Origin: Candidatus Segetimicrobium genomatis
Lineage (GTDB): Bacteria; Sysuimicrobiota; Sysuimicrobiia; Sysuimicrobiales; Kaftiobacteriaceae
NCBI GenBank assembly: GCA_005882335.1
Contig: VBAP01000005.1
Location: forward strand, 53,217-75,583
Direction: 5' to 3'
DNA: 22,367 bases
Below the pieces are notes generated by a model. It made no database searches. It was not told where the DNA came from and saw nothing but the letters and a program-made list of their open reading frames with translations. The position numbers and the translations under genes are program-made. This document shows, one piece after another, positions 1-21,992 of this stretch (position 1 is the first letter of the stretch; every line of letters begins with the position of its first letter).

Positions 1-1147
1 GGAAAACCACCCGGCCCCGCCGAGTGCTCATGCGGCCCTCGGGAAGCGGGATGAGTCCGAAATCCACGTGGATGTAGTCCACGTCGCCGAACCCGAGCTT
101 GCGGAGGGTGGCAAACAACTGCTGGAAGTGCAGCCGCTGGTCGGAGCCGACGACGTAAAGGATCTTGGCAGGATGGAATGTCTGGATCCGGTAGATCGCT
201 GTGGCCAGATCACGCGTGTGATAGAGGGTCGCCCCGTCGCTGCGGCGCAGGATCAGCGGGGTCTTGATCCCCACGTCCTCCAGCCGGACGATCAAGGCGC
301 CCTGATCTTCCACCGCAATGCCCAGACGGAGCGCGGTGTCAATCACCTCGCCCATCTTGTCTTCGTAAAAGCTCTCCCCCAGCGTGTAATCGAATCGTAC
401 CTCGAGCAGATCGTAGATCTTCTGAAACGCGGCCAGGCTGTGACGGACAAACTCCTGCCACAGGCGGCGGGCATCGGGGTCTCCCCGCTCCAGCCGCAGG
501 TGCCACTGCCGGGCCTGGTCCCGCAGCGATGGATCGCGGCGGGCTTCCGCATCGAACTTCACGTACAGACGCAGCAGTTCGCCGACCGGGTCACGCTCGT
601 AGGCCTCGCGATCCAGCTAGGTGTGGTACGCATACAGCAGCGTCCCGAACTGCGTGCCCCAGTCGCCGAGATGATTGTCGCCGATCGGCCGGTAGTCTGC
701 GAACTTGTGGAGCCCGTACAACGCCGCGCCGATGATGGTGGAGCGCAGGTGCCCTACCGACATCTGCCGGGCCACGTTAGGCGCGGAGAAGTCGATCACC
801 ACCGTGCGCCCGCCGCCGGTATCGTTGCTCCCGTAGCGGTCGCCCAGCCGCCGCAGGTCGCCCATCACCCCTGCCGCAAACGCCGCGCGCGCAAAGGTCA
901 CATTGAGGTAGCCGCCGCTGGCGTGCGCCGACTCGAGGAGCGGACCCAGCTTCATGGCACCCGCCAGTCGAGTGGCGATCTCCTGAGGAGCCGCGCGCAG
1001 CGTTGCGGCCAGCGGGAAGCACGGGATGGCGAGGTCGGCGGCGACACCGGCCGGCGGGATCGCCAGTGAGAGGCCGACCTCTGCGCCTGCGGCCCGGCGC
1101 GTCGCTTCCAGCGCCTCGCGCTTGGCGGCCTCATACGTGTAGACCAT
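1..1147 (-). CDS. argS: Arginyl-tRNA synthetase, N-terminal ~380 aa. The 3' end runs off the window edge. An in-frame TAG at 617-619 interrupts the reading frame (...[35 protein letters not shown]...). The likely start is ATG at 1145-1147 ([15 protein letters not shown]...), not the upstream Met given in the ORF track.
   Basis: ORF 617..1198 (-) carries ArgRS hallmarks: an Add-1 N-terminal domain and the class-I motif [22 protein letters not shown] translated the minus strand below 616 by hand and it continues in the same frame with ArgRS-like sequence and no start codon, so the TAG is inside the gene and does not end it. Confidence 0.85.
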
Positions 1148-1153
1148 GCCAGC

Positions 1154-1159
1154 ATTATA
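1154..1159 (-). promoter_or_regulatory. Perfect TATAAT -10 box on the minus strand. It sits 6 nt upstream of the argS ATG, so the argS transcript is probably leaderless. No convincing -35 box.
   Basis: The plus strand reads 'attata' at 1154-1159 and 'cat' at 1145-1147. There is no Shine-Dalgarno sequence between them. Confidence 0.4.
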
Positions 1160-8523: not shown

Positions 8524-9894
<1,371 letters not shown>

Positions 9895-11116: not shown

Positions 11117-11745
11117 CGCAACGGATCCTACTGGCCGACGATCATCAAATCGTACGTCAGGGGCTGCGGTCGCTACTGGAGCGGGAAGGTTACGAGATCG
11201 TCGCTGAAGCCAGCAACGGGCCGGAGGCGATTCAACTGGCCAGGGACACGCGGCCCGATATCGTGGTGCTGGACCTGGCGATGCCGCTCATGAATGGTCT
11301 GGATGCCGCGCGGGAGATCCGCAAGAACTCGACGCAGACCAAGGTCATCCTCCTCACGATGTACGCGGAAGACCACTACGTCCTGGAGGCGCTGCAGGGA
11401 GGTATCTCAGGGTACGTGCTGAAGACGCAGGCGGCGCCAGACCTGGCGCAGGCCCTCGGGGAAGTCGCCCGCGGCTCCATCTATCTGAGTCCCGGGGTAT
11501 CCCGTACGGTCGTGGATGCGTTCCTGACCAAGAGCGACGTGATGCCTGACCCGCTCACCCCGCGGGAACGGCAGATTTTGCAACTTGTCGCAGAGGGGAA
11601 GACCACCAAGGAGATCGCGGGGCTGCTGGGCATCCGGGTAAAGACCGCGGAATCGCACCGCACCCGCATTATGAAAAAGCTGGACATCCACCAGACCGCC
11701 GGCCTGGTCCGGTATGCCATCCGCCGCGGGTTGATCCAGACCTAG
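11113..11745 (+). CDS. NarL/FixJ-family response regulator (REC + LuxR-type HTH). The true start is the ATG at 11113, which overlaps the kinase stop (ATGA). The track ORF starting at 10930 is over-extended.
   Basis: Receiver-domain motifs (LLADDH, VVLDLAMP) and the C-terminal LuxR HTH (LTPRERQILQLVAEGKTTKEIAGLLGIRVKTAESHR). Confidence 0.85.
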   Translation: MTQRILLADDHQIVRQGLRSLLEREGYEIVAEASNGPEAIQLARDTRPDIVVLDLAMPLMNGLDAAREIRKNSTQTKVILLTMYAEDHYVLEALQGGISGYVLKTQAAPDLAQALGEVARGSIYLSPGVSRTVVDAFLTKSDVMPDPLTPRERQILQLVAEGKTTKEIAGLLGIRVKTAESHRTRIMKKLDIHQTAGLVRYAIRRGLIQT

Positions 11746-15592: not shown

Positions 15593-17392
15593 GTGACGGC
15601 ACGGAAGCCTGCCGCGCCGCCGGACAACGAGGAGCGTCCAGACTACTTCGCATTGCTGCGCGACCGCTACGATCTCACCGCGGTCCCCTTTACCGACCGC
15701 GCCAGCCGGTTGTTGCTGTTTCTGGATCCAGATCGAAAAGCGTTCCACGTCCGCGTCTCCGAACGATGGCCGCGGCTGGACTACGTGGAAGGCGACTACC
15801 GTACCCGCCGGCCGATCGTGCGCGATCTGCGTCCCACCGACGGCGACGGCCGGCCGCTGCCCTTCACCCTGACCAGCTTTCCGCACCGCGTCGAATTGGT
15901 CACCGAGCACGGGCCGTTTGCGATGGTCTTCGCCGACCCCGAGGTGTTGCTGATCACCGTGCCTCCAGGCCGTGTGGGGGTGCAGTGTCTGGTCCGCGCC
16001 GAACACGGCGCCGCGGACCGGCGAGGGGCGCACTTCCGAGGGGTGCGCAACGTGGCCCTGACTACGAATGCGCGCCTGCTCAGCAACGCAGTTGAACCGC
16101 AGGGCGTGCACTATCGTGTCGACCTGCGTGTGGACGCCGGGACGGACGCGGCGGTCTCGCTGAACATCACCCCGCGGCTGGGATTCAATCGCGGCCTGCA
16201 CCCGCAGGCGGCGCTCGCTGAGAGCGAGCACCAATGGCGGCGCTGGTTCGAGGCGGCCCCGCCGGTCCATTCCAGGTACCACCTCCCCTACTACTATGCC
16301 TGGTGGATCATGCGCGCCGGCCTGGTCAGCTCGCGATATTACCTAACCCGCGAAGCGATGGTCCCGTCCAAGGTCCGCTACGTGGGCGTGTGGCAGTGGG
16401 ACGCATTCTTTCACGCGCTGGCCTACCGCTACGTCGACCTCAGACTCGCCAGCGACCAGTTTCGCATCTTCATCGACCATCAACGCCCCGACGGGATGCT
16501 GCCCGACGCCGTCTACGATGAGGGGGTAATTGACCACCTGGCGTATCCCGTGGACGCGCCGGTCACCAAGCCGCCGATGGCGGCCTGGGCCGCATGGAAG
16601 GTCTACCAGACCACCGGGGATCTGGACTTCCTGGCGGAGATCTACGCCCCGCTGGTGCGGTGGAACGAGTGGTGGTTCACACACGCCGACGACGACCGCG
16701 ACGGCATCGCCCAGTATTCGCATCCCTTCTCGTCCGGTTTCGACGACAGCCCGCTGTGGGACGCCGGGATGCCGGTGGAGTCACCGGATCTCTCGACGTA
16801 CCTGTGCCTGCACATGGAGGCGCTGGCCGGGATGGCCGAGGCGCTCGGGGAAACCGAGGACGCTGTGAGATTCCGCGCCCGCGCCGACGACCTGGTCCCG
16901 CGGATGATCGAGCATTTCTATGATCCGCAGGCCGGGGTGTTTTGGGCCATGCGGCCGACCGACCAGGGGCACCGCCGCGTGGAGGTGCTCACCTCACTCA
17001 ACCTGTTCCCGCTGTGGACCGGCCGCCTGCCGCCCGCCGTGGCCCAGCGACTGGTGGATCATCTCACGAATCCGGAGGCGTTTTGGACGCGCTTTCCGAT
17101 CCCCAGCGTGGCCCGCAGTGATCCCGCGTTCAACCCCACCCAGATGTGGAGGGGCCCGGTCTGGGTCAACATCAATTACCTGTTTGTGGAGGCGTTGCAG
17201 CGGGCTGGATTTCCCGACCTGGCGCGGCAACTGTGTGACTCCACCCTGGACCTCGTCGCCGGGTCCGCCGACATGCGGGAATACTACCATCCCGAAACGG
17301 GACAGCCACCACCGCAGGCCGCACCCTGCCAGGGGTGGACCGCGGCCTGCTTTATCGATCTGGCGATCCGCCGCTCACGGGGGGAGGTGTAG
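15593..17392 (+). CDS. (alpha/alpha)6-barrel glycoside hydrolase, GH63-like. Candidate mannosylglycerate/glucosylglycerate-hydrolase-type enzyme (GTG start).
   Basis: 599 aa. The central region (GVWQWDAFFHALAY..., AWKVYQTTGDLDFLAEIYAPLVRWNEWW, SGFDDSPLWD) is typical of six-hairpin glycosidases. The exact family cannot be fixed without a search. Confidence 0.75.
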   Translation: MTARKPAAPPDNEERPDYFALLRDRYDLTAVPFTDRASRLLLFLDPDRKAFHVRVSERWPRLDYVEGDYRTRRPIVRDLRPTDGDGRPLPFTLTSFPHRVELVTEHGPFAMVFADPEVLLITVPPGRVGVQCLVRAEHGAADRRGAHFRGVRNVALTTNARLLSNAVEPQGVHYRVDLRVDAGTDAAVSLNITPRLGFNRGLHPQAALAESEHQWRRWFEAAPPVHSRYHLPYYYAWWIMRAGLVSSRYYLTREAMVPSKVRYVGVWQWDAFFHALAYRYVDLRLASDQFRIFIDHQRPDGMLPDAVYDEGVIDHLAYPVDAPVTKPPMAAWAAWKVYQTTGDLDFLAEIYAPLVRWNEWWFTHADDDRDGIAQYSHPFSSGFDDSPLWDAGMPVESPDLSTYLCLHMEALAGMAEALGETEDAVRFRARADDLVPRMIEHFYDPQAGVFWAMRPTDQGHRRVEVLTSLNLFPLWTGRLPPAVAQRLVDHLTNPEAFWTRFPIPSVARSDPAFNPTQMWRGPVWVNINYLFVEALQRAGFPDLARQLCDSTLDLVAGSADMREYYHPETGQPPPQAAPCQGWTAACFIDLAIRRSRGEV

Positions 17393-18012: not shown

Positions 18013-18958
18013 ATGAGAATCCGCAACCTTAAACATTTCTATCCGGCGCTGAGTCTGCTGTTATTCTTAGTCGTGTTCACAACGGCGTGCGACATAGTTT
18101 CGTCGCCTGGGGCTTTCGACTCTCCGTTGTACGTGGCCAACTCCGGCGGCGACAGCATCACCATCTACGCCCCCTTCTCTAATGGCCCCGCCGCTCCTAT
18201 CCGCACTATCAGCGGGCTCACGAGTCCGTCCGGTGTGGCCGTGAACGCCGCGGGGGAAACCTTTGTCGCCAACTCCAGCACTAACAGCATCACAGTGTAC
18301 AGCCTTGGCGCCAACGGCAACGCCGCGCCCATCCGCACAATCAGCGGGCTTCTCACCCAGCTCGACAACCCCCAGGGGATCGCTCTGGATGCCGCCGGCA
18401 ACCTGTATGTCGCCAACGTCGGAACCACCACGCCCCCCACTCCCACCCCCAGTAGCATCACTGTCTACGGCCCTACCGCTACGAACAACGCCGCCCCTAT
18501 CAACAAGATCAGCGGAGCCAGTACCGGGCTCGACCACCCCCAGGGAGTACAGCATCACTGTCTACGGTCCAACCGCGACAGGCAACGCTCCCCCCATCCG
18601 AACCATCAGCGGGGCCAGTACCGGGCTCGCCAACCCTATTGGCGTGGGCCTGGATACCACCGTCAACCTCTATGTCGCTAATGCCGGCGGTACCACCAGC
18701 AGCATCACTGTCTACGCCCCTGGGATCAACGGCGACATGCCCCCTACCCGCACAATCAGTGGAACACTAACCGGGCTCGCCAGCCCACAGGGCGTGGTCC
18801 TCGATCCCACCGGGAGGCTCTACGTCGCTAACAACGGCACCCCACCCAGCATCACCGTGTACACCCCAGGCGCCATGAACAATGCTATCCCCATCCGCAC
18901 CATTACCGGGAGCGCCACTGGGCTCAGTCAGCCACTTTTCATTGCCCTCCGCCCTTAG
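18013..18958 (+). pseudogene. Beta-propeller-repeat lipoprotein (YVTN/NHL-like '...LYVAN.G..SITVY...PIRTISG' blades) with a lipoprotein-type signal peptide (MRIRNLKHFYPALSLLLFLVVFTTAC). The reading frame shifts by +1 at ~18544-18547, in a C5/G3 homopolymer context. The repeat blade at the junction is also about half-length.
   Basis: N-terminal 177 codons are in the frame of track ORF 17335..18681. C-terminal ~137 codons are in the frame of ORF 18263..18958. Both read as the same ~46-aa repeat family. 18013..18958 is 946 nt, which is 3n+1. Confidence 0.6.
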
Positions 18959-21349: not shown

Positions 21350-21479
21350 CGCGCGCCATTGTCTCCCGATCCTCTCCCCGCTGCTGACTCCTCAAACCGA
21401 TCGATCTGCCGGAGAGGGGGTTCGGGGATCGCGATTGAACAGATAAATGGCTCTGTACTTTCAGATCGGGGGGCGTGAC

Positions 21480-21992
21480 ATGAAAGCGTTGCGTCTTCTC
21501 CTCGCAATTGCCTTCATCGTGACAGGAGCCACCCAGTCGTCTGAAGCGGTCGCTCGCCTGAAGCTCATGTCCTGCAAGGACATTGAGTCCGCCGACCTTG
21601 GTTCACAAGGACGTGGGCTCGTCCCTATTTCGTGCGCGAAGGAGTTCTCGGCCACCGATCCTTACGTCGTTTTGATTATTGACGTGCAAAATATCGACTT
21701 CGAAACAGGTGTGATCACAGAGATTCTGGATCCGGGGAGTATCGTCATTCACGCGCATTCATTTGCGATCAAGCCGCCACCGGGAAGTACATGGGCTCAC
21801 TACTGGCGGTGGTTTGTCTTGCCTCTGTCGGCCACTACGGAGCAGCTGGCGAATAAAGGCCCGTCGTTCCTATTCTCGACCGTCGCCGCGAAAGCAACAC
21901 CGCCGATCGCCGAGCGCCTGGGCGAATGGTCATTCGTGGCAACGCTCACATCTGGATCACCCGTGACCCACAAGTTCACATTGCGCCCGTAG
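21480..21992 (+). CDS. Hypothetical secreted protein with a signal peptide (MKALRLLLAIAFIVTGATQSSEA). Lower GC than the core genome.
   Basis: ORF 21447..21992. The internal ATG at 21480 is preceded by a G-rich Shine-Dalgarno-like stretch and gives a canonical n-h-c signal peptide. Confidence 0.5.
   Translation: MKALRLLLAIAFIVTGATQSSEAVARLKLMSCKDIESADLGSQGRGLVPISCAKEFSATDPYVVLIIDVQNIDFETGVITEILDPGSIVIHAHSFAIKPPPGSTWAHYWRWFVLPLSATTEQLANKGPSFLFSTVAAKATPPIAERLGEWSFVATLTSGSPVTHKFTLRP

Follow-up and report, generated by a model that had tools for sequence, protein, structure and literature searches.

An in-frame TAG within a conserved enzyme gene is a hallmark of pyrrolysine-containing and TAG-reassigned genetic codes, in which the codon is conserved or recurrent across genes and is depleted as a terminator. 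Where UAG keeps its ordinary meaning, a real UAG codon in an essential gene would need rescue of the kind known from supE/supF-type amber suppression in Escherichia coli; the classical suppressors insert Gln, Tyr, and the like. Near-cognate decoding of UAG is known to insert Gln, Tyr, or Lys rather than Trp. Metagenome-assembled genomes (MAGs), for their part, are known to contain ordinary amber lesions and consensus errors. The argS gene described here is a standard gene for a canonical bacterial class I arginyl-tRNA synthetase (ArgRS), its protein being 96% identical to the ArgRS of Candidatus Segetimicrobium genomatis, except that it is interrupted by TAG at codon 177 and also carries the substitution Q367P. 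It resembles the pyrrolysine and reassigned systems in having an in-frame TAG within a conserved enzyme gene, but its relatives have TGG at this codon, no second case occurs in the window, and at least four genes use TAG as their stop. It is unlike supE/supF-type suppression in that no tRNA lies in the window, the neighboring genes terminate with TAG, and codon 177 calls for an invariant Trp. What it shares with ordinary MAG lesions is a single private transition (TGG to TAG) in one assembly, a second private gene-breaking lesion on the same contig, and a contig break close by. On sequence comparison, we consider that the argS TAG belongs with the routine, already known nonsense changes and consensus errors of MAGs. 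We put the probability at about 0.8 that it is an assembly or consensus artifact, or else a minority harmful allele captured by the assembly.

The window, by which we mean the whole 22,367-nucleotide stretch of DNA that was analyzed, begins inside argS (Table 1). The minus-strand triplet 619..617 reads TAG and is codon 177 of argS when counted from the ATG at 1147..1145; the translation from this ATG opens MVYTY. Beyond the TAG, the argS frame stays open for 205 more codons, up to the window start. A read-through translation of all 382 codons, with X placed at the stop, matched 7,937 proteins in a phmmer search, and the best match (E = 7.7e-222) covered 100% of the query, running across the stop. 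The best matches are 570-residue proteins with the Pfam domains PF03485, PF00750, and PF05746. Solved ArgRS structures (1bs2, 6ao8, and 4oby) also align across the TAG, with PDB chains covering residues 37-382. The equivalent of the class I HIGH motif, SVGH (residues 130-133), lies before the stop in a region that aligns to HIGH-type PDB ArgRS chains, and the equivalent of KMSKS, MSTR (residues 372-375), lies past the stop in the same frame and is conserved in the homologue alignment. GC3 in the argS frame is 0.89 before the TAG and 0.78 after it. Judged by these similarities, the TAG is a true in-frame stop inside a real gene rather than a chance junction of open reading frames (ORFs). The original prediction, which had reported an in-frame amber codon in a minus-strand argS and an ArgRS-like frame continuing for at least 200 codons past it, was confirmed in place, frame, gene identity, and flanking peptide, and homologues match the frame over its whole length.

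Table 1. Coordinates of argS, of the variants in and near it, and of the other genes and stop codons considered in the window
Feature	Position	Strand	Remarks
argS (arginyl-tRNA synthetase)	2..1147	-	first 382 of ~570 codons; gene runs off the window start
Q367P, codon 367 CAG>CCG	48..48	-	immediately precedes the MSTR loop; the other private change in argS that alters the protein
Two synonymous variants next to the TAG (codon 193 CGT, codon 183 TAC)	569..599	-	differ from L001 and the 96% group
In-frame TAG, codon 177, in place of invariant Trp codon TGG	617..619	-	from homologue and DNA-locus comparison
TATAAT hexamer	1154..1159	-	6 nt upstream of the argS ATG; read from sequence
accC stop TAG	9892-9894		terminator
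Response regulator stop TAG	11743-11745		terminator; TAG-C context identical to that of the argS codon
GH63-like hydrolase stop TAG	17390-17392		terminator
MscS-like ORF, 179 aa	17396-17935	+	starts 4 nt after the GH63-like TAG, in the same frame
NHL-repeat lipoprotein gene	18013-18681	+	rest in another frame to ~18958; 53 nt missing at 18548/18549
Signal-peptide (secreted-protein) ORF	21447-21992		stop TAG at 21990-21992

Read literally, the ArgRS ends after 176 of ~570 residues. Over two thirds of the protein is then lost, including the MSTR loop, the anticodon-binding domain, and the greater part of the catalytic core. The anticodon-binding domain, a C-terminal DALR domain, is present in all full-length relatives; the argS described here leaves the window at codon 382. 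Exact look-ups of the truncated products (176 aa, or 193 aa from an alternative start) returned no record anywhere, while the exact products of two neighboring genes do recur elsewhere, AnmK on 2 contigs and the MscS-like protein on 8. Could the truncated product nevertheless be part of a working enzyme? The 176-residue N-terminal fragment and a re-initiated C-terminal fragment would then have to associate non-covalently to give a functional enzyme. Reconstitution is sometimes possible for split aminoacyl-tRNA synthetases, and this precedent, with the intact frame past the TAG, speaks for such an arrangement. However, the first ATG, GTG, or TTG in frame after the stop is a GTG at codon 196 (562-560) with no purine-rich ribosome-binding site ahead of it, the Rossmann-fold residues 177-195 would be missing, and the arrangement is found in no relative (120 homologues and 13 cluster members). 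We regard a split ArgRS as next to impossible.

The window lies on a soil metagenome contig from an uncultured bacterium, a close relative of Candidatus Segetimicrobium genomatis. Among named genomes, the closest is VBAL01, "Bacillati bacterium ANGP1," which corresponds to Candidatus Segetimicrobium genomatis of the Ca. Sysuimicrobiota and has ~96% DNA identity to the window; a second group of ANGP1 genomes is ~83% identical. The literature found on ANGP1 or Segetimicrobium consisted of unrelated papers only. Two much closer contigs, L001 and L002, both from other assemblies, were retrieved by exact look-up of the neighboring AnmK protein. In a gapless alignment of 12,233 bp, L001 (ERZ27315255, k141_2176527) is 99.845% identical to the window; the figure for L002 is 99.911% over 11,200 bp. 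The 19 differences between L001 and the window comprise 13 synonymous changes, 5 missense changes, and 1 nonsense change. By this pattern of substitution, the window and the near-identical contigs are strains of one population under purifying selection. Because its differences from relatives are mostly synonymous, the window contig is largely a faithful strain haplotype and is not generally error-ridden. About 2.8% of random substitutions in argS yield a stop, so a single nonsense change among a few unfiltered changes is unremarkable.

We then identified the residue that the stop replaces. When the 120 listed homologues were aligned with MAFFT, W stood opposite the stop in 120/120, and the 13 additional proteins of the nearest 90% clusters whose sequence spans codon 177 also have W, a residue already among the candidates first proposed for this position (Q, E, Y, K, and W). 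The codon itself is TGG in 10/10 related DNA loci fetched (L001, L003, L083, L084, L171, L172, L173, L004, L085, and L086). L001, which spans argS codons 1-370, is the closest of the contigs to show TGG there. The nucleotide change is at position 618, where the plus strand has T in the window and C in all relatives. In light of these alignments, the TAG is a private G-to-A transition on the coding strand (TGG>TAG), neither a conserved stop nor a reassigned codon.

This result bears directly on the idea that the TAG is decoded by design, whether through codon reassignment, pyrrolysine-type recoding, or context-dependent read-through, so that full-length ArgRS is made. The one point in favor of the idea is that an essential gene contains the codon, with 205 in-frame codons beyond it. 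The presence of TGG in every relative, up to 99.85% identity, leaves the stop unconserved and effectively refutes it, and near-cognate decoding of UAG would be expected to supply Gln, Tyr, or Lys rather than the Trp found at this position. Moreover, TAG serves as the true terminator of accC, the response regulator gene, the GH63-like gene, and the secreted-protein ORF. The GH63-like domain is complete ahead of its TAG, an end that independent gene calls share. For accC, the 83% relatives have TAA 3 nt downstream of the window's TAG, although a 1-nt gap upstream makes the frame of this comparison uncertain. Codon reassignment had been thought unlikely from the outset on the ground that TAG terminates accC, the response regulator gene, the glycoside hydrolase gene, and a lipoprotein gene; the first three of these terminators stand, but the NHL-repeat lipoprotein gene, the sole ORF in the window with a lipobox (FTTAC), ends in TAA.

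Apart from the boundary between the glycoside hydrolase and MscS-like genes, a six-frame scan of the window for stops with at least 100 open codons on each flank turned up no further stop inside a coding frame of high GC3. At that boundary, we considered the GH63-like TAG (17390-17392), which is followed in the same frame by 180 open high-GC3 codons, as a second case of read-through and rejected it, the sequence beyond being a separate MscS-like gene. The MscS-like ORF encodes TM2/3 and most of the beta-domain, without the C-terminal domain. Gene calls on 8 contigs, from 7 samples in all, give an identical 179-aa product. The ORF is therefore a short but stable gene and represents neither an error nor an extension by read-through.

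The searches for a recoding apparatus in the window were likewise negative. No tRNA genes and no Rfam families were detected in its 22 kb, and the 120 nt after the argS TAG fold no better than shuffled sequences (z = +0.52; 133/200 shuffles at least as stable). A reassigned TAG would be expected to recur within coding frames and to be avoided as a terminator; in the window, TAG ends four genes, and a single TAG stands in frame within a coding frame. We rejected codon reassignment on stop-codon usage and the ends of orthologues. Pyrrolysine insertion or programmed recoding of UAG calls for a stop that is conserved in orthologues, and the orthologues have TGG in 10/10 loci and W in 120/120 homologues and the 13 cluster members. 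As regards pylT/pylS or a downstream recoding structure, the window yielded no tRNA, Rfam match, or stable fold. Programmed read-through, which the original prediction had kept as an option, is accordingly refuted by the absence of the stop from all relatives, including the 99.85%-identical contig, and by the lack of a downstream structure or Rfam match. Taken as a whole, decoding by design is extremely unlikely.

Another explanation is a genuine amber allele that has become fixed in a viable strain, with rescue by a second argS or by a suppressor tRNA with a CUA anticodon that provides a low level of full-length protein. In its favor, the rest of the contig reads as one coherent haplotype whose differences are mostly synonymous, and the additional change Q367P in argS could mean relaxed selection on a redundant copy. 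Yet argS is an essential gene that appears to be single-copy: among the 80 loci kept of 538 matches in a genome scan, there was one argS locus for each of the two related ANGP1 genomes. The 22-kb window contains no tRNA that could act as a suppressor, and the intact codon in a 99.85%-identical contig means that the amber state would have to be extremely recent. An efficient suppressor would also be costly, given that TAG ends at least four other genes, one of them in the same TAG-C context. On balance, we consider a fixed amber allele unlikely. Its more specific form, a viable Sysuimicrobiota strain with the amber codon fixed in its only argS and kept alive by a suppressor tRNA or an unrecognized second ArgRS, is very improbable. 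A fixed allele would be of modest interest as natural nonsense suppression or aminoacyl-tRNA synthetase redundancy in a poorly known phylum; were the amber codon fixed in the only argS, it would represent natural suppression of an essential-gene nonsense mutation in a wild soil population.

We therefore return to an artifact or a minority allele as the preferred reading. Under it, the consensus base at 618 would be wrong for the living population, whose cells would carry TGG, and the TAG would have no function. The base could be a mistake of sequencing or assembly made where support is poor, close to the contig break, or it could come from a rare harmful allele that was picked up by chance during assembly. 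We infer that the base is an artifact or a minority variant, not fixed in a viable strain, because the Trp is invariant (120/120 homologues and the 13 cluster members) and the codon is TGG in 10/10 loci, including L001; because other private defects (Q367P and a 53-nt frameshift) lie on the same contig; because L001 and the window break at nearly the same point in argS; and because the truncated products are on record nowhere while those of the neighbors recur. Among the explanations first offered for the stop, sequencing or assembly error is thus the best supported, provided that it is taken to cover a minority allele picked up in assembly as well.

The condition of the rest of the contig supplies two of these arguments. 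The first concerns the NHL-repeat lipoprotein gene. The 53 nt absent from it are present in L166 and L168, near-identical contigs of other assemblies, and the deletion causes a frameshift that leaves a product of 222 aa with a nonsense tail, compared with the intact 332 aa in L166 and L168. The second concerns the contig ends. With L001 ending at position 38 of the window and the window starting at 1, two assemblies stop at nearly one point in argS (codons ~370-382). These near-coincident ends suggest an assembly-graph break inside the gene. In the protein clusters examined, there is no full-length ArgRS of the window strain, the closest being 96.6% identical, which together with the coincident breaks suggests strain heterogeneity or a tangle in the graph. 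Several observations count against an artifact. Most of the other differences from near-identical relatives are synonymous; a TGG>TAG transition is equally expected of a genuine spontaneous mutation; and the murQ change at 2763 (G219D), which is private to the window, is reproduced in a Logan assembly of the public run SRR5439720, so that private changes in the window need not all be errors.

Within argS, the window and L001 differ at four positions (48, 569, 599, and 618), of which only 618 (the amber codon) and 48 (Q367P) are private to the window. Codon 367 is CAG in 10/10 related loci, and the residue-367 column of the 120 homologues contains T, R, Q, S, N, A, I, or V (with one gap) and never P. 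With regard to decay into a pseudogene, argS shows no frameshift and two private changes that alter the protein (W177* and Q367P), counts that are too small to gauge constraint. The states at 569 and 599 co-occur in L172, which represents a 92%-identical lineage and has TGG at codon 177. Because L172 has both variants with TGG, the 569/599 haplotype is real, and the TAG alone on it is private. Going by this co-occurrence, the two synonymous changes are standing variation or a small recombined tract.

Some apparent signs of error in argS did not hold up. The cluster of single-nucleotide variants at 569, 599, and 618 might be taken as a mark of bad reads, but this argument is weakened by L172, in which the first two are seen to be standing variants. 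An apparent excess of private changes in argS (4/5 inside the gene, P = 0.00045) is undercut by the same locus and is not to be relied on. Changes at positions 5 and 23, considered as contig-tip errors, are synonymous third-position changes outside the L001 coverage and are uninformative.

The amber codon carries little biological weight, and its practical value is as a quality flag for a contig in which at least two genes are broken by private lesions, argS by the amber codon and the NHL-repeat lipoprotein gene by the 53-nt frameshift. Because of such a private lesion, annotation pipelines would report argS as a pseudogene or as two separate fragments and might wrongly score the genome as having no ArgRS.

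Outside argS, the window departs from L001 and from L002 at four sites within a 31-bp segment of murQ (2756-2786), and two of these changes are missense. The window agrees with more distant relatives at three of the sites; the fourth is the private G219D site at 2763. From the distribution of these states, the segment looks like a small recombination tract.

Upstream of argS, the TATAAT-N6-ATG arrangement is kept in both the 96% and the 83% relatives despite replacement of the spacer upstream of it. A consensus scan found no -35 element to match the TATAAT, which is probably the promoter of a leaderless transcript. The spacer between anmK and argS (1160-1313) contains direct and inverted repeats of the GGGAACACGGGA type. 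It is nearly identical in the 83%-ANI group, but in the 96%-ANI group its place is taken by a repeat of unrelated sequence (CAGTCTGCAGT...). L002 ends within this spacer, at window position 1296. The spacer could represent a terminator cassette or a small repeat element that is mobile or recombining. Farther along the window, between the convergent band-7 and ABC ATPase genes, an 8-nt indel relative to L164 (12779-12787) sits in a palindromic intergenic hairpin, AACGTTGAAACGTT...AACGTTTCAACG, which is probably a bidirectional terminator.
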